From IMG/VR virus record IMGVR_UViG_3300009618_000004: DNA of 20,000 bases. One strand, written 5' to 3'. Below, in pieces: positions 2 through 12,865 of this stretch; within the stretch, counting starts at the first letter, position 1, and each line of letters opens with the position of its first letter. A program made the position numbers and the translations under genes. This stretch comes from an uncultured virus (IMG/VR IMGVR_UViG_3300009618_000004). Its lineage: Duplodnaviria > Heunggongvirae > Uroviricota > Caudoviricetes. The notes beneath the pieces are model-generated. The model did not search any database. It was not told the DNA's origin and worked only from the letters and a program-made list of their open reading frames with translations.

Positions 2-559
2 GCCGCCTACAGGGAGCGCCAATCAACTTTCTGGCGGCTGTGGCTCAGAATCCGGCATGGGAAGGTTGCGCCGCGGCTGGAGTCGCTACACGGCATCCCT
101 GTGGCACAGGCCGACTACCTGCCCGACGGCGGCTTATTCCTGCAGGTGGCTGACCGAGCCCAAGTGGGACTGCCGGCGGCGCCGGGCGTGCCAACCAGTA
201 TGGGACCGCCTGCCGGTATGGAGCAGGCCGCCCAGGATGCTCGGCAGCAGCTCGCGGCTCGGGGTGAGGAGTTTTGGAAGAAGGATCGCATCCAGGCGCT
301 GAACGATGCGATGGACGGCGTGGCGGGGCCGGGCGAGATCCGGCCAACACTGAACGACCTGTCAAGCGGGGGCGGCGCGCGGCCGTCGGCGAGCGATGTG
401 TTGATGAAGGCGATGGAGGACGTGGACGACCTGAACGGCATTGTTGTAGTGCGCGTGCATCGCAACGGCAACGTAGATCTCTGCCTTAACGTAGATCAGT
501 TCGCCGCCCAAGGGGTTCTCCAGAAGGCGCAGCAGTATTTGTTTATGAAGGGGTATTGA
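2..559 (+). CDS. Hypothetical protein, 5'-truncated by the window edge (the frame of ORF 101..559 is open back to base 2)
   Basis: No stop from 2 to TGA 557-559. The stop overlaps the ATG of the next gene (TGATG). Confidence 0.7.
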   Translation, partial: AAYRERQSTFWRLWLRIRHGKVAPRLESLHGIPVAQADYLPDGGLFLQVADRAQVGLPAAPGVPTSMGPPAGMEQAAQDARQQLAARGEEFWKKDRIQALNDAMDGVAGPGEIRPTLNDLSSGGGARPSASDVLMKAMEDVDDLNGIVVVRVHRNGNVDLCLNVDQFAAQGVLQKAQQYLFMKGY

Positions 560-2937
560 TGACGCCCTACTACGAATCCAACGGAGTGACGATCTATCAC
601 GGCGATTGCCGGGAGATATTACCACTACTTGAGTTAGTCCACGCGATAATCTGCGATCCACCTTATGAACTAGGTTTTATGGGAAAAGCATGGGATAAGT
701 CTGGTATTGCCTATGATGTGAAGATGTGGCAAGAGTGCTTGCGTGTACTCAAGCCCGGTGGCCACCTGCTTTCGTTTGGCGGGAGCCGTACCTATCACCG
801 CATGGCCTGCGCGATCGAGGATGCAGGATTCGAGATCCGCGACCAAATCATGTGGCTGTACGGATGCCTGGATGAGCAAACAGAACTTGTGTCTGAGAGT
901 GGAGTCAAGCCGTACCATAAAGCAAAAATAGGTGAGCGCGTATTGTGCTACAATCCAGAGAACGGCGAGTATTCTTACCAGCCAATCATGGAGATTGTCG
1001 AGTATGACTATAGCGATACCGCCTATCGTCTTATCGGAGATTTTGGAGAGCAAGTCGTCTCCAGAAACCATCGCTGCATTGTTGAACGAGGCGGAAGCGA
1101 AGTATTCCAATTTGCCGAAACGATCAGGTCCGAGGCGCGTGTACCCGTTTTGGAAGGTTTGTCAGAATTGCGGCAAGCCCTTTCCAACCTTCAATCGGAC
1201 TCAGGCGGCTCGGAACAAATCGTGCAGCCGAGAGTGCACCAATACACTGATTGGGAAAGGGAACAGCGGTTCGACTTCGCTAAAGAAGAGGAAGGGCAAG
1301 ATAGTTCCCTGTGTGGTGTGTGGGAAAGAGAAATGGGTTCCCTTGGCGTGGTTGAAGAAAATCAAGCAAACAGTGTGCAACTACGAGTGCAATGGAGTTC
1401 TGAGAGGCACAGCGTGGAAACAACACGCATACAAGGGGAGGAAACACTGGAAACCGGAATCGGAGGCTGCGTTGAAGATTCGCATGACGGGTCCGACCAA
1501 TCCAGCATGGAAGGGGGGTCTGACTTATCGGAAGCGCAAGGGAGCGTATGCCGACCAGCCAATAAAGTATGTTCGTTGCCCATCCGAGTTCCTGAGCATG
1601 GCGCGGAAGGATGGCTATGTGATGGAACATCGTCTCCTGGTCGCTCAGGTAATTGGCAGACCTCTCCAGAGAGCCGAAGCTGTTCATCACAGGAATCACA
1701 AAGCGAAGGAGAATCAACTAACCAACCTAATGCTGTTTGCGACGAACGCGGAACACAAGGCATACGAGCATGGCGCGGCCATAAAACCTCTTTGGTGCGG
1801 GTTGTGCCATTCCAATACACCGGAAAGATGTGGTGTCTGCGTGTATCGACAGGAGCCTTCGTCGCAGTCCGTGGCGGCGCAGCTTTCCCGACCGGCAATA
1901 GCGGATTTCCGAAGTCGCTGGACGTGAGCAAGGCGATTGACAAGGCGGCAGGCGCGACGCGGCCTGTCGTGGGCGTCAATACGAATGGCAGCGGTCCCAA
2001 CCTCACCAAACTCGACAATCATGAGGCTGGCGATACTGGCATCGGCTACATGGATGGGAGCGGCAAGGTATTCGATGTGACCGCGCCTGCCACTGTGGAA
2101 GCCAGGCAGTGGCAGGGTTGGGGCACGGCCCTGAAACCCGCTCACGAGCCTATCTGTGTAGCCCGCAAGCCCGTCGAGGGCACGGTCGCGGCCAACGTGC
2201 TCAAGAATGGCACTGGGGCTTTGAACATCGACGGATGCCGTATAGATGCGACCGACGATCTTGTTGAAGATGATGGTCGCAGAGTAGATATGGCGCGTGA
2301 GTCAATTGCGGAAGGATACGATAGACCAAACGCAACAATGTTTCGTACAGGTAAACCAGCGGTTCGTGGTGGTCCATCAAACCAACTTGGCCGCTGGCCT
2401 GCCAATGTCATCCACGACGGCAGCGATGAAGTTCTATCTTGCTTTCCTGAAAGCAAGGGTCAGCAAGGGGATGTTCGTGGTGATGAACCTTCAGGCGTAA
2501 CCGACGAGATATATGGAAAATTCAATGGACGAGTTTCTTCTCCTGCAAGACTTGACTCCAGCTCAGCCGCCCGTTTCTTTTACACCGCCAAGGCTGACAA
2601 AGAAGAGCGCGAGCGCAACTGCTGCGAACTTACCCCCCCCAAAAGGGATGGTTCTCGAAAGGATGGAAACCCTGGTGGTGACAATCCACGAAACCGAGGC
2701 GTTCACGAGCGCATTAACAATCACCCTACCGTCAAGCCTCTGGATTTGATGCGCTATCTCTGCAAGTTGCTTTGTCCGCCGAGCGGGGGAATCCTTCTGG
2801 ACCCATTTATGGGAAGTGGAAGCACGCTGATCGCCGGGCGTGGATTCTATCAACGTTGCATCGGTATCGAACTCGAAGAGAGGTACTGCGAGATTGCGGC
2901 GAAGAGACTGAGCCAACAGGTACTTGGTTTTGAATAG
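559..2937 (+). CDS. Beta-class N6A/N4C DNA methyltransferase (MTase-1) containing an intein
   Basis: IYHGDC, motif IV DPPY, LRVLKPGG, GWGTALKPAHEP, GRWPAN, NNHPTVKP and motif I LLDPFMGSGST. AAGGGG RBS before ATG 559. Confidence 0.95.
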   Translation: MTPYYESNGVTIYHGDCREILPLLELVHAIICDPPYELGFMGKAWDKSGIAYDVKMWQECLRVLKPGGHLLSFGGSRTYHRMACAIEDAGFEIRDQIMWLYGCLDEQTELVSESGVKPYHKAKIGERVLCYNPENGEYSYQPIMEIVEYDYSDTAYRLIGDFGEQVVSRNHRCIVERGGSEVFQFAETIRSEARVPVLEGLSELRQALSNLQSDSGGSEQIVQPRVHQYTDWEREQRFDFAKEEEGQDSSLCGVWEREMGSLGVVEENQANSVQLRVQWSSERHSVETTRIQGEETLETGIGGCVEDSHDGSDQSSMEGGSDLSEAQGSVCRPANKVCSLPIRVPEHGAEGWLCDGTSSPGRSGNWQTSPESRSCSSQESQSEGESTNQPNAVCDERGTQGIRAWRGHKTSLVRVVPFQYTGKMWCLRVSTGAFVAVRGGAAFPTGNSGFPKSLDVSKAIDKAAGATRPVVGVNTNGSGPNLTKLDNHEAGDTGIGYMDGSGKVFDVTAPATVEARQWQGWGTALKPAHEPICVARKPVEGTVAANVLKNGTGALNIDGCRIDATDDLVEDDGRRVDMARESIAEGYDRPNATMFRTGKPAVRGGPSNQLGRWPANVIHDGSDEVLSCFPESKGQQGDVRGDEPSGVTDEIYGKFNGRVSSPARLDSSSAARFFYTAKADKEERERNCCELTPPKRDGSRKDGNPGGDNPRNRGVHERINNHPTVKPLDLMRYLCKLLCPPSGGILLDPFMGSGSTLIAGRGFYQRCIGIELEERYCEIAAKRLSQQVLGFE
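865..1899 (+). mobile_element. Intein (345 aa) in MTase-1
   Basis: Starts CLDEQTELV (block A), has SRNH (block B) and YTGKMWCLRV (block F), and ends FPTGN followed by Ser(+1). Removal restores the WLYG-SGFPKS motif of this MTase family. Confidence 0.92.
932..1927 (+). CDS. HNH homing endonuclease in the +1 frame inside the intein (true start uncertain: 932, 1004, 1112 or 1139)
   Basis: Two Cys clusters (CQNC..CSREC, CVVC..CNYEC), NPAWKGG, and HNH core GYVMEHRLLVAQVIGRPL..EAVHHRNH..ENQLTNL..NAEH. Confidence 0.88.
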   Translation: MSAYCATIQRTASILTSQSWRLSSMTIAIPPIVLSEILESKSSPETIAALLNEAEAKYSNLPKRSGPRRVYPFWKVCQNCGKPFPTFNRTQAARNKSCSRECTNTLIGKGNSGSTSLKKRKGKIVPCVVCGKEKWVPLAWLKKIKQTVCNYECNGVLRGTAWKQHAYKGRKHWKPESEAALKIRMTGPTNPAWKGGLTYRKRKGAYADQPIKYVRCPSEFLSMARKDGYVMEHRLLVAQVIGRPLQRAEAVHHRNHKAKENQLTNLMLFATNAEHKAYEHGAAIKPLWCGLCHSNTPERCGVCVYRQEPSSQSVAAQLSRPAIADFRSRWT

Positions 2938-2941
2938 TAGC

Positions 2942-3181
2942 CTACTCGTCAATAAGGTGCCAGCAATCCGAATGAACAAACCGCTTCCCGCGCGGTGCCA
3001 GATATTTGAGAACCAGATCGTTGCCCACACTTCGATCCCCTTTGAAGATTTGGGAAAGTAATTGCATTGATATTCCGATCTCGTTCGCAAACTGGACCTG
3101 GGTCATTCCACCTTGACGGTCCTTGAGCATCTGGCGTAACTCGCCGGCGGTGTAGGGGGCTGGTGTGGGCTTATTGCTCAT
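2942..3181 (-). CDS. Cro/XRE-like HTH DNA-binding protein
   Basis: MTQVQFANEIGISMQLLSQIFKGDR is a typical HTH. AGGAAG RBS; start 3181 or 3187. Confidence 0.8.
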   Translation of the reverse strand: MSNKPTPAPYTAGELRQMLKDRQGGMTQVQFANEIGISMQLLSQIFKGDRSVGNDLVLKYLAPRGKRFVHSDCWHLIDE

Positions 3182-4031
3182 CGTCATCTTCCTTCTGCGG
3201 TATGCCGTCGAACGCCGCCTGCAGAACTTCGACCTGTTTTTGGAGAGTTTCCCTGATACGCTCAGCGTGTCCCACTCCATACCTCGCCTGGTCGAGAACG
3301 GTTTTTATGTTGGCTTTCCCGTCCATCAACATCCTCACCACCTTGCCGATCTTCTCTGGTTGAGTCCATCCATACGAAATTAATAGTCCAGACTCTTTCT
3401 CATAAGCGTCAACTTTCTCTTTTAATTCTTTGTAGTATTTCTCATATTCGTCCGTTCTTGTGCGAGACACCCCCTGTTTGTATCCCTCATCTCGCGCTGC
3501 GGTTAAAGCCGCAGCATCGGCTTTTGATTGGCGATTACTCACTGCATAAATGAGAGCGGTGAGCATGGTTATGCTCATAGGGAGTGGATCCAACCTAGGA
3601 CACGGCACAACACACTTGAGCCGGTTCTTTTGCGCCACAAACATTCCCCATGATTCTGGCAGTTCGCCGGGTTTAACAATGTCTTTATGGGGAACTACTA
3701 ATCCCCAATGGTGGCAATAGCGAAGGATGGACTCCGCCTTCTCCGGCTGTTTCAATTCCTTGAGCCAGTCGTTGCGTGAGACTTTCATCTCGAATCCCCA
3801 GATTGCCTTGCCCCGGCTCCGGTAAAGACTGATCGCCATAGCGTCCGCTGTTCGCACTCCGTCAAACCCGGTAGCATCCCTCACTTCTTCGAGGGTGATA
3901 TACGCTGGTGCCGTGAAACTTGCCTGAAGGCGAAGGAATAGATCATGAGCCGCGAGCTTGGCTCCCTCTTCCAACTCTTCGTCTGCCACAACTTCCGGTC
4001 CGATCAATTCTTCGTATGCGGGATCGCTCAT
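3171..4031 (-). CDS. PD-(D/E)XK-like protein (MmcB-like phage family) with coiled-coil C-terminus
   Basis: EEV..RTADAMA..WGFEMKVSRNDWLKELKQPEK..ELPESWG. ATGA coupling at 4028-4031. Confidence 0.7.
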   Translation of the reverse strand: MSDPAYEELIGPEVVADEELEEGAKLAAHDLFLRLQASFTAPAYITLEEVRDATGFDGVRTADAMAISLYRSRGKAIWGFEMKVSRNDWLKELKQPEKAESILRYCHHWGLVVPHKDIVKPGELPESWGMFVAQKNRLKCVVPCPRLDPLPMSITMLTALIYAVSNRQSKADAAALTAARDEGYKQGVSRTRTDEYEKYYKELKEKVDAYEKESGLLISYGWTQPEKIGKVVRMLMDGKANIKTVLDQARYGVGHAERIRETLQKQVEVLQAAFDGIPQKEDDDEQ

Positions 4032-8942: not shown

Positions 8943-9308
8943 TTATTTTTCAACATACACGCGGCTGGTCCAGATGGCGTGGAGGTTACCGTTCTTCTCC
9001 GGCCGTATGCTTCGCGCGAATCGATCTGTCCTCGCCAGTATCCCCATCTGGGCTCCGCGTTTCATTGCCGGGCCGATCGCGGCCAGGTTATGCGTCTCGG
9101 GCGGATTGGGCAGCGTCTCTATCTCGGCGAGCACGTCGTCGCTGGTGATCTCCGCTTTTTTGCGCGCCGCGGCCAATACGCAGCCGTCGAACACGTGGCG
9201 CCAGCGCTGGTTCGCGTTTTCGTCCGCCTGCTTCATGCCGTCATAGATCCGCGCCTGGGCTGCCGGCGGAAGACGCTGGGTGAAATCCAGAGCGTATTGC
9301 TGCATCAT
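8943..9308 (-). CDS. Hypothetical phage protein, possibly winged-helix-like
   Basis: GGAGGG RBS, ATGA coupling; ITSDDV..AIGPAMKRGAQMGIL..W.S pattern. Confidence 0.7.
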   Translation of the reverse strand: MMQQYALDFTQRLPPAAQARIYDGMKQADENANQRWRHVFDGCVLAAARKKAEITSDDVLAEIETLPNPPETHNLAAIGPAMKRGAQMGILARTDRFARSIRPEKNGNLHAIWTSRVYVEK

Positions 9309-9502
9309 TGAGCCCTCCGTGGCTCATACTCCACCGCCCGCTCACGCCAGTCTGCGCAATGCGCAATCCGAGCATGTTCCTCGTTGTCTTTCGCTACAAG
9401 TTTCTCCGCCGTCGCCTGTTTCAACTTAAAGCCGACCACCTGCAACGGCCGCCAAGTCCGCCCCGCGTCTTCGCTCCGCTCGATAATCCAGATGGAAGTC
9501 AT
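9305..9502 (-). CDS. Hypothetical protein
   Basis: GAGGTG RBS; TAATG coupling to the MTase-2 C-fragment stop. Confidence 0.65.
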   Translation of the reverse strand: MTSIWIIERSEDAGRTWRPLQVVGFKLKQATAEKLVAKDNEEHARIAHCADWRERAVEYEPRRAQ

Positions 9503-10923
9503 TAGATCACCTCAATCTCATTCAGCAGTGGCGCAGCCTCGCGGATGCGTTTCTCGGCCATTGCTGCATAGACCGGGTTCAACTCGATTCCAATGAACTC
9601 GCGGCCATACCGCAGCGCCACCACGCCGGTTGTACCACTGCCGCTGAAAGGGTCGAGCACCGTGCCCGCCGGTTCAATCGGGCAGTGACAGGACTTTTCG
9701 GCTGGCTTGATGTGCCCATATCCCAACAAGAGGTCCAGCAAATCCGATGGAAGGGGCCGTGCGCCGGAAAGGTCAGTGCGAATGTAATGGGCGAACGCCG
9801 GGCCGCAAAGTGCTGCAATCTTTTCCCGGTTAGGGTGAGTGCGCAGTTGCTCGGCATATTGCCGCTGCTCATACCGTGTGATCGGGCGCGTTCCTTCGTC
9901 GGAACGGCGAGGCCGTGACATGCCAGCGCGTCCGATTTCCAGCGTAGGGTCATCTATCGGCCCTGACCCGGTGGGAGTTTCAATGACCTCGCAACAGTTG
10001 CAACGCTTGCCGGCAGGCGGGCAGCCTGCCAGAATGCACGGCACGATCAACTCTTCAGGGAAGGTGGCGAAGTGGGCTTCCTTGTACGGCTGTGTGGCGA
10101 CGGTCCAGACATCACGCTTGTTGCGGGTCTCCCAAGGCACATCGGCAATCTTCATCAACCCCGCAGCAGTGCGATGCTCCTCGCTGTCGCTGCCCTCATA
10201 TTCAGTCACCAATTTATGCGACTTGTTGCCTGCGGTTCGAGGCTTATTGGACGACCGGCCAAGCTGATGCTCCGCCGTCTTCCCATTGTTGAACTTGTTG
10301 CCTTTGAAACTGCGTGGCTCGCCCCCATGCTGCTGATCTTCTGGCCGTCCGTCTAATTCCCATGCGCCCTTGCTGGTGTATGGACGCCGCGGATCGCAAG
10401 TTGCTGAAGGCTCTTTGATGGCATCGAAATCAAAGTAGTAACGTGGCGACTTGGTTAATAGAAACAGGTACTCGTGGCTCTTGGTGCAGCGATCGGTGAC
10501 GCTCTCCGGCATCGGGTTCGGTTTGGCCCAGATAATGTCCTGGCGCAGATACCAGCCGTCGGCGCGCAGAGCAAAGGCCAGCATCCATGGGATGCCTACT
10601 AGGTCTTTAGGTTTAATTGTTTCATGCCGTCCATCTGAGGGGCGTTTGCTCATTTGAACAGTTCCACCAGATTGAACATAACCTCTTGCTTCAGCGGTTG
10701 CTCGTGCCTTACTGCTTCCGTTTTCTCCTTTTCCTCCCCAATAGGAATCTCCGATATTAAGCCATAAAGTTCCGTCACTCCGCAGAACTCGTCGCACCTC
10801 ACGAAAGACCGCAACCATGCGACAGACGTAGCACTCTCCACACTCCGCCGGCTCAAAAAACTGCTTCAAATCGGCAGGAATTTCATGCTTGCCAACAAGT
10901 ACATCTCGGCCTAGAATCTTCAT
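9502..10923 (-). CDS. DNA methyltransferase MTase-2, C-terminal fragment (lacks motif IV)
   Basis: [62 protein letters not shown], motif [24 protein letters not shown] lies 9 nt before ATG, with an in-frame TAG just upstream. Confidence 0.92.
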
Positions 10924-10925
10924 AG

Positions 10926-11573
10926 ATGAAAACCCCTAGAATATGTGAGCAGTGTGGTAATGAATACCAGAAACGCGGTCTTCGCTTTTGCAGCAACTCC
11001 TGCCGTGTGACATTCGTCAACCTGCACAACAATGTGGCTAAACGCCCAGAGGTACGGTCCAAGATTGCGGCAGCGGCTCGCGCCAGCAGTCGGCAAGCTC
11101 AGTTGATGACCCCGGCTGCCCGCGAGAAGGCTGTCAAGGCGATTGGGGAAGCTCTGCGCAACAGGCCACTTACGCCTGAGCATAGGGCCGCTATCGGGAG
11201 AGGATCGAAACTCGCGGGATGTAGACCGCCCAGGAATCTGCACCTGGTTGGACCGACACACCCGAACTGGAAGGGCGGAACTTCCACGCTCCGAAACGCT
11301 GATTTCAAAAATCCAGCATACAAGGCTTTTCGAGCAGCAGTGCTGGAACAAGACGATTGGACCTGCCAAAAGTGCGGTAAGCGTGGCGGTAGGCTCCATG
11401 TTCACCACATCAAATCGTGGGCTGAATTCCCCGACTTGCGTTACGACCCCGCGAATGGCTCTACTCGTTGCCATGCTTGTCACCATGCGGAGCACCGGGG
11501 GCAGCCACGCCCAAAAGGCGCTGGACCACGTACACTCGCTGCTCGTCTGTTAAATCCCGCCGTAGTCGCATAA
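10926..11573 (+). CDS. HNH homing endonuclease (Zn finger + NUMOD3-like + HNH), antisense within MTase-2
   Basis: [55 protein letters not shown]. Confidence 0.92.
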
Positions 11574-11919
11574 GCCCATGCGCCCCACAACTCGGCGTCT
11601 TTTCGAGACCGATCTGCCGGTCGACACGGACGGCACCGCATTTGCCGCAAACGTCCTTAAAGTTCGCCCCGGCCCCCGCAATCAACGTGCGATTCTGCGC
11701 GTAGCTATCGGTCTCGACCGGACGACCGTCGCCGTGCGGGATCTGGCGACGCTCGCCGTTCGCGCGATGGTCACATCCGACGGAGCCGCCCTCCCACTCA
11801 GCCGTCCCGTAATCGCGCAAGCCCCAGTAGGGTGGGCTGGTCACCACGCATTGGACGGCCTCATCCGGCAGGCCGCGTAGCCGCTCCAGCGCATCGCCAA
11901 TCAGGATTATTGCTTTCAT
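11461..11919 (-). CDS. DNA methyltransferase MTase-2, N-terminal fragment (catalytic SPPY)
   Basis: ILIGDALERLRGLPDEAVQCVVTSPPYWGLRDYG...QIGLEKTP; GGAAGG RBS; TAG stop at 11461-11463. Confidence 0.92.
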   Translation of the reverse strand: MKAIILIGDALERLRGLPDEAVQCVVTSPPYWGLRDYGTAEWEGGSVGCDHRANGERRQIPHGDGRPVETDSYAQNRTLIAGAGANFKDVCGKCGAVRVDRQIGLEKTPSCGAHGLMRLRRDLTDEQRVYVVQRLLGVAAPGAPHGDKHGNE

Positions 11920-11936
11920 CACTACCTTCCAAATTC

Positions 11937-11965
11937 ACACTACGCGCTTTTGCAGAAACATTCAA
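11937..11965 (-). promoter_or_regulatory. Sigma70-type promoter TTGAAT-N17-TAGTGT driving the leftward operon
   Basis: Directly upstream of the 11919 RBS, with an AT-rich upstream tract; spacer resembles that of the 8911-8939 promoter. Confidence 0.65.
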
Positions 11966-12355
11966 GAAAATAATAACGCTAATTTGTGGATACGCAAATA
12001 TGCAGAAGCGCGGAGGGGAGCCGAGAAATTTGTATGGGAACGGTTGGTCGTGGGTCGTGGGCGTGCGGTCGAGGGCACCCCCTGGGCGCGCGTTGGGCGC
12101 GGGGCGGGTTGCACGGAGCGTCGAGCGGCGGCCGGGGCGGGCCTGGCTGGCCGCGCAAGGCGGGGGCGCGCGCTCCACAAACGGGGCCGACGGCAGAAAA
12201 AACACCTTCCCCGCTCTATTTTCGCTGTAATCTCTCTATCTACAAGGGAATCTACTACATACGGCGCTCTCCGCTCTCTCATGTGTTGAGCCTATACACA
12301 AGGGGCGTGTTGTATCAATATATATGGTGGTAGTTTGGGAACATCGGCGAGATGA

Positions 12356-12865
12356 TTACCGGCGCGGCGGGTTGCACTCCGGGCAGGAAAGCCAGTTGAC
12401 CCAATCGTGCGGGCAGCGCGCACCAAACGTATGGGGCGTGCTGAGCGACTTCACGACCTGAGCGAAGCGAGACGGTGCGCCGGCAGGGTTGGACGGCCGC
12501 ACGACCGATTGATCAGAGCGAACACATGAGACCTGGACACCAACAGGGATCGGAACCGGCGGAAGGCTAGAGGCTGGCTGCACCAGATCGGCAGGCGAGA
12601 CGGCAGGGACCGGCGAAGCCTTGAGAGTACGCGTAGCTTTGCCGCGCCGTGGAAAACTGGACTGACTAGGGCGCGCCGAGGTGGGCGAGCTTACCTCTAC
12701 CTGGCGCGGCTGCTCGACTTGAGGCGCGGGCTGGACCTGAGACCGATTCCATTTGATCGACTTGCAGCGCGCACATCGACGGACGGCGGAAGGATCGCCG
12801 ACAGGTAACCACCGATGGCCGCAACCCGGAACCTCACAGACACATATCCTGGCCCACTCAATCAT
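12356..12865 (-). CDS. Zn-ribbon protein with Pro/Ser-rich linker
   Basis: C..CGHRWLP..RRCARCKSIKWN N-terminus; CPH..CPEC C-terminus. Confidence 0.6.
   Translation of the reverse strand: MIEWARICVCEVPGCGHRWLPVGDPSAVRRCARCKSIKWNRSQVQPAPQVEQPRQVEVSSPTSARPSQSSFPRRGKATRTLKASPVPAVSPADLVQPASSLPPVPIPVGVQVSCVRSDQSVVRPSNPAGAPSRFAQVVKSLSTPHTFGARCPHDWVNWLSCPECNPPRR

Follow-up and report, generated by a model that had tools for sequence, protein, structure and literature searches.

The 20,000-nt stretch of DNA analysed here (the window; IMG/VR record IMGVR_UViG_3300009618_000004) comes from an uncultured virus, and the sequencing runs containing it are labelled as peat and wetland metagenomes. Between positions 9502 and 11922 it carries a DNA methyltransferase gene which is divided over two open reading frames (ORFs) on the minus strand, with a single ORF, an HNH homing endonuclease gene, located between them on the plus strand. 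This arrangement is probably best read as a mobile, non-splicing HNH cassette that has entered a phage beta-class N6/N4 methyltransferase gene and brings its own reassembly adaptors, in the form of a tail on the N-terminal methylase fragment and a leader on the C-terminal fragment. A sequence-only reading of the same DNA had proposed a heterodimeric split methyltransferase created by a non-splicing homing element, and all computational tests run, on the sequence as well as on a structural model, support this proposal.

The split methyltransferase locus and its HNH gene

The N fragment of the methyltransferase (11461..11922, minus strand) is 153 aa long, starting from either GTG 11922 or ATG 11919 and ending at a TAG stop at 11463-11461, and the C fragment (9502..10923, minus strand) is 473 aa long. 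The sequence-only reading had placed the motifs SPPY and DPFSGSG, which we take to be motif IV and motif I respectively, in separate ORFs, and this was confirmed: the N fragment contains SPPY at residues 29-32 together with a CxH...CxxC insert, and DPFSGSG is found near residue 424 of the C fragment, toward its C terminus. Motif IV thus precedes motif I, which is the beta order. The C fragment is recognised by PF01555 (N6_N4_Mtase; 9.4e-36, 124.3 bits versus a cut-off of 26.7), and its relatives in the PDB are CcrM, M.RsrI and MboIIA. The N fragment alone has no Pfam match; it matches the PHROG 67 DNA methyltransferase family at 1.2e-10 and shares 73% identity with P0152 and P0153, two unsplit methyltransferases, over their N termini.

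Alignment to uninterrupted homologues mapped the break to the point given in the sequence-only reading. Unsplit relatives contain GLEKTP, two further residues and then YVxxMVxVFREV, and because they read straight through GLEKTP-xx-YV, the window has a 756-nt block (10837..11592, equal to 252 codons) inserted at this site. Residues 1-110 of the N fragment (11593..11922, minus strand), up to GLEKTP, are colinear with the unsplit methyltransferases in these alignments, and the remaining 43 aa (11464..11592, minus strand) form an insert-encoded C-terminal tail. On the other side of the block, the C fragment starts with a 27-aa insert-encoded leader (10843..10923, minus strand), followed at the joint between leader and methylase by a conserved Cys triad (CGECYVC; 10822..10842, minus strand). 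The block consists of the tail codons, the HNH gene (10926..11573, plus strand), the putative HNH promoter and the leader codons. Both ORFs are open at the window locus, in line with the earlier view that the halves are undegraded, and the frame that would join them contains 10 in-frame stops, with the previously reported TAGs at 11461 and 10936 being the first and last of these.

The nearest virus record, an IMG/VR fragment (G001), has 100% of sampled words in common with the window and contains a single HNH copy. When the junctions were compared with contigs from other peat and wetland runs, there were 0 differences at either junction (coverage was 10431-12500 in X3, 10657-11203 and 11239-11794 in X5, and 10499-10950 in X6), and therefore the arrangement is not a mis-assembly. 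Two other joints (9667>10058 and 9672>10499) have short sides, occur in a single run and lie elsewhere in the C fragment, and these were not used as evidence. A near-identical unsplit allele was not found among 160 methylase loci.

The HNH gene is intact, as had been read from the sequence, and encodes a 215 aa protein with an N-terminal Cys cluster, a middle region and the motif HVHH...N...CHACH. It matches PF01844 at 9.4e-8 (32.5 bits versus a cut-off of 21.4), PHROG HNH families down to 1.4e-15 and the HNH protein of PDB entry 5h0m at 4e-7. Comparison with 17 full-length relatives at 45-65% identity gave 22 invariant columns, with H160, H161, N177, C182, C185 and H186 being invariant in all 18 sequences, and the ratio of nonsynonymous to synonymous differences (pN/pS) versus the related locus L086 was 0.14.

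No Shine-Dalgarno sequence precedes the HNH gene. A promoter-like site, TTGCCA-17-TAGAAT (10889..10917, plus strand), matches the consensus at 10 of 12 positions, and is the only such site in 10600-12400, where 0.6 would be expected by chance. Since its -10 hexamer ends 8 nt 5' of the HNH ATG, the HNH mRNA is predicted to be leaderless or near-leaderless. Similar -10-like hexamers are located 6-8 nt 5' of the HNH start in 7 of the 10 lineages described below, or in 8/10 if ATG 470 is taken as the start in L092. As the consensus-matched promoter is antisense to the leader codons, the 81 nt encoding the leader may carry the putative HNH promoter on their other strand. The C fragment has its own AGGGG Shine-Dalgarno-like element (10933..10937, minus strand), positioned within the antisense of the first HNH codons and 9 nt ahead of ATG 10923, with the HNH ATG (10926) only 2 nt off; both features agree with the sequence-only reading.

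The public gene call for the C fragment (P0001, 383 aa) uses an internal Met start 90 residues downstream of ATG 10923, and therefore lacks the leader and the FREVRRVL...GDSY region. The split arrangement explains this mis-annotation, in which the C-fragment gene call is truncated by 90 residues at its start and N fragments are listed as small orphan proteins.

With regard to splicing, a covariance search of region 9000-12500 with Rfam 15 (E≤10) gave no group I, group II or other intron family, only three chance-level miRNA/snoRNA hits, and nothing was found at E≤1 in nine related loci (44,467 bases). The N fragment, residues 1-60 of the C fragment and the unsplit relative P0270 were searched with Pfam (E≤10), and none of them has an intein or Hint match. 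The terminal residues also differ from the intein end-residue rule (PMC11855218, section 3.2): the tail begins with Ser or Asp, and the leader ends with Gly-Glu, Gly-Arg or Asp-Asn ahead of the Cys, with no His-Asn there. The earlier statement that no intein termini are visible is therefore upheld by both the domain search and the end residues. Flanking repeats were limited to 10-15 nt matches, which is chance size, and therefore there is no sign of recombinase-type excision. The sequences thus suggest that the methylase halves are not rejoined by splicing. Stop-codon read-through or an alternative genetic code was also considered, and is ruled out by the 10 stops in the joining frame.

Recurrence, selection and mobility

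We searched for relatives of the HNH protein on viral contigs (80 kept of 117 found) and on metagenome contigs (16 loci), with close relatives defined as full length at ≥35% identity. Close full-length relatives were present at viral loci L005-L009 and L063 and at metagenome loci L085-L092 (51-100% identity), and in all 14 loci the HNH gene lies antisense between N and C methylase fragments at the same site. Taking L085 to be the phage of the window itself, and collapsing pairs whose statistics are identical into one, leaves 10 distinct lineages. Beside more remote HNH matches (21-30% identity, or restricted to the HNH domain) there is mostly no methylase. When the N fragment was run against 1.84 billion cluster representatives in an exhaustive HMMER search, the best 150 matches included at least 16 more short proteins (123-171 aa) ending in this tail. 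Pattern searches were less productive: an HNH pattern gave 89 matches but no relatives in genome representatives (using a smaller alignment), and a degenerate leader DNA pattern gave 0 matches in genome contigs and was found in viral contigs only in the contig of L005. The sequence-only reading had named decay of homologues as the mark of a simple pseudogene; in lineages with DNA covering both halves, the C fragment including motif I is open in 8/8 and the N fragment in 7/8, the exception being L087.

The tail has the consensus P[SD]CGxxG-xxRLRxDLTxxQRxYVxxRLL in an alignment of 22 split N fragments, with Cys112 (11587-11589) and Leu136 invariant in all 22. Over its last 113 nt including the stop (11461-11573), the tail overlaps the HNH gene's 3' end in antisense. 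The RLRxDLT part lies opposite an HNH C-terminal stretch which, after GPRTLAEL, is variable in both sequence and length, and because the overlapping HNH C terminus varies there, the constraint falls on the tail's own frame. The leader has the core [ILV]PxDLxx[FY]FEP, followed by CGxC[YF]VC, with P16, L19, F23, C31 and C34 invariant in 9/9 C fragments, and 10/10 lineages retain a C-fragment start codon. Codon alignments of both peptides show the same residues encoded by different codons, a near-saturated synonymous turnover, with a pN/pS of 0.31 for the tail (pS 0.74; 12 codons, 36 lineage pairs) and 0.24 for the leader (pS 0.93; 11 codons, 36 lineage pairs). On the strength of this synonymous turnover and low pN/pS, the tail and leader bear the hallmarks of translated, functional peptides under protein-level selection rather than of spliced-out spacer.

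The possibility that the tail derives from the downstream exon as a diverged duplicate was considered and rejected, with a profile-profile probability of 0.4% and 1 aligned column; MAFFT and phmmer tended to place the tail on the downstream exon. A word-based search with the tail alone, which is weak evidence, did not find it within longer proteins. The leader resembles a methylase N terminus (MKIL...) by eye and in its MAFFT placement, and this was not used as evidence.

Next we compared the divergence of the HNH gene with that of the methylase. Between the window and L086, the HNH proteins are 92% identical, versus 56% (tblastn) or 66% (170-aa core) for the methylase. At the DNA level, identity is 97-100% in two segments, approximately 10815-11264 and 11505-11584 (where the L086 contig ends), and falls to approximately 70% left of 10813, just past the leader and Cys triad. 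Methylase trees were constructed with insert columns excluded, using FastTree with 88 rows and a quick IQ-TREE run with 36 rows, after 15 candidate rows without SPPY or an anchoring motif had been dropped. The window methylase nests with 6-7 unsplit proteins (support 99) and the methylase of L007 with 7 unsplit proteins (support 95), and 7 (FastTree) or 6 (IQ-TREE) changes of split state are required in the respective trees. Placing the 9 split rows in one clade is rejected by the approximately unbiased (AU) test (p 0.0021, lnL difference 96.5); the 36-row set consists of near and far rows chosen by us, the FastTree result had been seen before this test, and the tested group is defined by the trait. 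The split methylases are polyphyletic in these trees, and judging from the element being more similar than its host gene and from its patchy distribution, the HNH cassette is mobile.

Assembly of the fragments and alternative explanations

The complex of the N fragment, the C fragment and two zinc ions was modelled together with three controls. The model has an interface score (ipSAE) of 0.81 (0.81, 0.82 and 0.81 in individual runs) versus 0.00 for the best control; the ipSAE mark used is reached by 116/157 solved complexes and 2/215 mismatched pairs. At least 83% of contacts are shared between runs, with a confidence (pLDDT) of at least 65 for the partner. The contacts with the lowest error place the SPPY strand (N fragment 26-28) between C-fragment strands 52-56 and 422-424, and in the modelled interface tail residues 107-122, 124, 128, 132 and 135-136 face residues 7-12, 15-16, 19-20 and 22-39 of the leader and joint. 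Prediction of the complex had been put forward in the sequence-only reading, and the outcome, which passes the controls, supports binding of the N and C fragments to each other. Because the cysteines are invariant and nearly absent from unsplit relatives (among 301 stored proteins, CxxCxVC was found only in P0236, P0256 and P0270), Cys112 of the tail and the CxxCxxC triad are a candidate interchain Cys4 zinc site.

These data fit a mechanism in which a compact cassette, consisting of a free-standing antisense HNH gene, would invade a methylase gene between GLEKTP and the YVxxMV helix and stay in place at both the RNA and the protein level, so that two methylase polypeptides are produced. The N fragment would extend by 43 residues, antisense to the HNH 3' end, before stopping, and the C fragment would restart from its own ribosome binding site and ATG with the 27-residue leader, opposite the HNH promoter. 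Tail and leader would then act as adaptors joining the halves into one Rossmann-type fold, possibly sharing a Cys4 site made up of one tail Cys and CxxCxxC at the leader joint, and the assembled protein would presumably be an active methylase. The HNH protein, probably translated from a leaderless mRNA with a promoter of its own, would through its cleavage activity spread the whole block, adaptors included, among methylase genes by homing.

An unlikely alternative is that the methylase is dead, with a selfish HNH gene having broken a dispensable gene, and the halves still intact as the insertions are young or renewed by homing. Phage orphan methylases are often dispensable, as is argued for ShiLan (PMC11855218, section 4.1), the N fragment of L087 is frameshifted, and the second methylase gene of the window at 556-2937 could cover the function. 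However, HNH copies are only 36-65% identical between lineages (the 92% window/L086 pair excepted), so the insertions are old, and despite this age nearly all fragments are open; moreover, a dead gene would not keep tail and leader at the pN/pS reported above, and all lineages retain the C-fragment start codon. We also regard it as improbable that tail and leader are the halves of an older methylase mini-domain (a Cys-knuckle loop) in which the HNH gene landed and on which reassembly would depend. This explanation draws on the unsplit proteins P0236 (PDCGTHGQAQCGQCFVC), P0256 and P0270, which have a Cys motif at the split site after spacers of 6, 10 and approximately 47 residues, respectively; in P0270 a single chain contains stretches resembling tail and leader, and this protein groups with the split methylases of L087 and L063 in the tree (support 92). 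These forms could equally be scars of HNH loss, and thus P0236, P0256 and P0270 are either ancestors of the split form or such scars. The closest methylase relatives of the window have no Cys motif and read GLEKTPDEYVAKMV (P0152 and P0153, the two at 73% identity to the N fragment, and P0010, at 76-78% in the columns kept for the tree), the near-identical window/L086 block spans the leader and Cys triad, and a similar leader is found at a different join (before QIGLE), with a same-strand HNH gene, in P0004, P0035 and L214, all of which argues against an older domain.

Undetected splicing, whether by a degenerate minus-strand group I or II intron, an atypical mini split intein or ribosomal bypassing, is by comparison very improbable. 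The 756-nt block is divisible by three, and therefore the halves share one frame; the tail starts with Ser-Cys and a Cys follows the leader, both residue types used by inteins, and real inteins occur in the methylase relatives P0015, P0101 and P0104, between DIIW and C. Against this, the intron searches described above were blank, and the antisense HNH ORF occupies 648 of the 756 nt, leaving no space for an intron core. The Hint search was equally blank, several lineages have Asp as first tail residue, His-Asn is absent before the downstream Cys, and tail and leader add up to 70 residues, approximately half of a HINT fold. An excised element would need no conserved stop, ribosome binding site, start codon or protein-level selection. 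Bypassing of 756 nt with 10 stops has no known precedent, the bypass gap in T4 gene 60 being 50 nt (10.1101/2022.08.31.505936).

Several points weigh against the cassette with its own adaptors. No HNH-free allele of this phage was present in the contigs of 4 runs, and a check of the listed sequencing runs containing the locus for RNA found none. The complex model joins halves of a fold that has single-chain solved relatives (CcrM, M.RsrI and MboIIA) and may therefore pass from the predictor's memory of such folds; the shallow alignments supplied for it (22 and 9 rows) and the added zinc ions are outside the calibration of the tool. The evidence for the zinc site is conservation. The frameshift in L087 (approximately 3840-3900, minus strand) directly follows SPPYW, and indicates that decay does occur, unless it is an error in the record. 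Recent transfer is seen in one pair only (the window and L086); elsewhere the HNH protein and the methylase are about equally diverged, and because of this, part of the pattern could be vertical descent. Finally, the adaptor could be an older methylase insert, since P0236, P0256 and P0270 carry the Cys motif unsplit. The public gene call for the L087 N fragment (P0209) starts in the second frame.

The non-splicing cassette remains our preferred interpretation, and we tentatively take it one step further, to a self-contained, splicing-free element which carries a portable split-protein adaptor on the antisense of its own gene ends and so neutralises its insertion at the level of protein assembly. 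Tail and leader would here clamp the host fragments together, perhaps via the interchain zinc site. If true, homing endonuclease genes located in conserved genes would have a third general solution at their disposal in addition to introns and inteins, and the element would also be a natural source of short reassembly tags.

Known systems and related architectures

The closest known system is phage Aeh1, where the free-standing HNH gene mobE splits nrdA without splicing; NrdA-a and NrdA-b acquired their tails together with the mobE insertion, and activity requires these tails (Crona et al. 2011, PMC3045599). The sequence-only reading had cited this case as an antisense insertion; the splitting of nrdA by mobE stands, but the available text of PMC3045599 and PMC2988022 contains no description of mobE as antisense, and states that mobE overlaps nrdA-b within an operon and is regulated on read-through transcripts. 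Further split genes are those with mobA/gene 60 and seg43(25)/gene 43 (PMC2988022). Aeh1 and the split methylase locus share a free-standing HNH gene splitting an enzyme gene into two ORFs, C-terminal and N-terminal tails which are missing in unsplit homologues, and an active site divided over two polypeptides, which for the methylase is a prediction. They differ in that the HNH gene of the methylase locus is on the opposite strand, with the tail antisense to its 3' end and the leader antisense to its promoter, and in that the host gene is a DNA methyltransferase. While Aeh1 is a single case, the methylase type recurs in 10 lineages and at least 16 further protein clusters, and its adaptors seem to travel; function is biochemically established for Aeh1 and predicted for the methylase locus.

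The ShiLan domain is an HNH endonuclease hidden out-of-frame in actinophage DNA methylases (PMC11855218; Arsenault, Gosselin, Gogarten 2025). It resembles the split locus in being an HNH insert in phage methylases without intron or intein features and with a patchy, homing-like spread, and leaderless HNH translation has been proposed for it as well. In ShiLan, the HNH gene is on the same strand, the host frame stays open, and a single polypeptide with a loop is made, whereas the split locus has an antisense HNH gene, 10 stops in the host frame and two pieces with conserved adaptors. Fractured genes, where a split intein is accompanied by a free-standing homing endonuclease between the halves (Dassa et al. 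2009, PMC2677866), are similarly broken at one locus with the endonuclease in between and with order and orientation kept; their halves are rejoined by trans splicing, in contrast to the split locus, where no intein domain or intein ends were found, and the accessible text of PMC2677866 does not mention a methylase among the hosts. Full-text literature searches, in which most subscription journals are not covered, listed no report of an antisense HNH gene that divides a methylase into pieces bearing conserved tails.

Reassembly peptides supplied by a mobile endonuclease that splits an enzyme gene have so far been studied only for Aeh1 nrdA/mobE, the authors of which proposed a possibly general mechanism (PMC3045599). 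The methylase locus adds a recurrent and evolutionarily tested family in a different enzyme, with the new twist that the adaptors lie opposite the endonuclease gene and its promoter; because they are encoded on the opposite strand, three proteins and a promoter would be accommodated in 756 nt. It thereby becomes testable whether homing elements carry assembly tails as heritable cargo.

Judging by its sequences, this methylase family is a hot spot for endonuclease elements, and the window and its relatives indicate that phage N6/N4 methylases host at least three non-splicing HNH architectures. The second methyltransferase of the window (556-2937, plus strand; 793 aa, PF01555 at 1.7e-26, PHROG 67 at 2.3e-66) has an insert of approximately 360 aa after MWLYG, with the frame staying open and no intein domain by Pfam. 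An inner same-strand, out-of-frame ORF (932-1927, plus strand; 331 aa) matches the HNH family PHROG 20891 at 7.1e-15, and Pfam HNH_3 at just 0.0062, which is under the cut-off. By sequence, region 556-2937 is a ShiLan-type hidden HNH architecture. Locus L101 (1501-3357, plus strand) looks ShiLan-like at a third site: its inner same-strand, out-of-frame ORF (1925-2686, plus strand; 253 aa) ends in an HNH-like motif when read by eye. An insert of approximately 260-300 aa, which this ORF overlaps, is present between PNPMPESV and RCTKSHEY in L101, P0007, P0009 and P0152, and L103, which matches P0152 at 99% over a far shorter span, may be an insert-free allele.

In L099, a 592-aa methylase ORF (1824-3602, minus strand) is stop-free through the antisense of an intact 180-aa HNH ORF (2762-3304, plus strand), which is inserted after WLNLGTSYWGGG, a different site, with the host frame open. 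L114 may resemble L099, as an HNH-like match (25% over 197 aa) lies antisense inside its methylase match. L214, with all genes on the plus strand, is split at a neighbouring site into ORFs 1722-1949, 1963-2544 and 2501-3358, i.e. a 75-aa N fragment containing SPPY and a tail, a 193-aa same-strand HNH protein and a C fragment. The latter opens with a similar leader (IPPHLLEYFEPAE) and continues with IGLEPTP, and P0004 and P0035 begin likewise.

Other inserts are in-frame. In P0015, P0101 and P0104, the insert between DIIW and SKPNPMPES begins with CLSGGT and ends with THN; PF14890 is listed (precomputed) for P0015 and P0104, and P0101 has the same flanking residues. P0084 and P0153 have an in-frame insert after ALRA/LRD which looks LAGLIDADG-like by eye. 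In L093, an HNH-domain gene (1967-2887, plus strand; 45% over residues 108-191) is located directly upstream of an apparently unsplit methylase on the same strand, an arrangement resembling that of Tiff81/Sashimi (PMC11855218, section 3.6).

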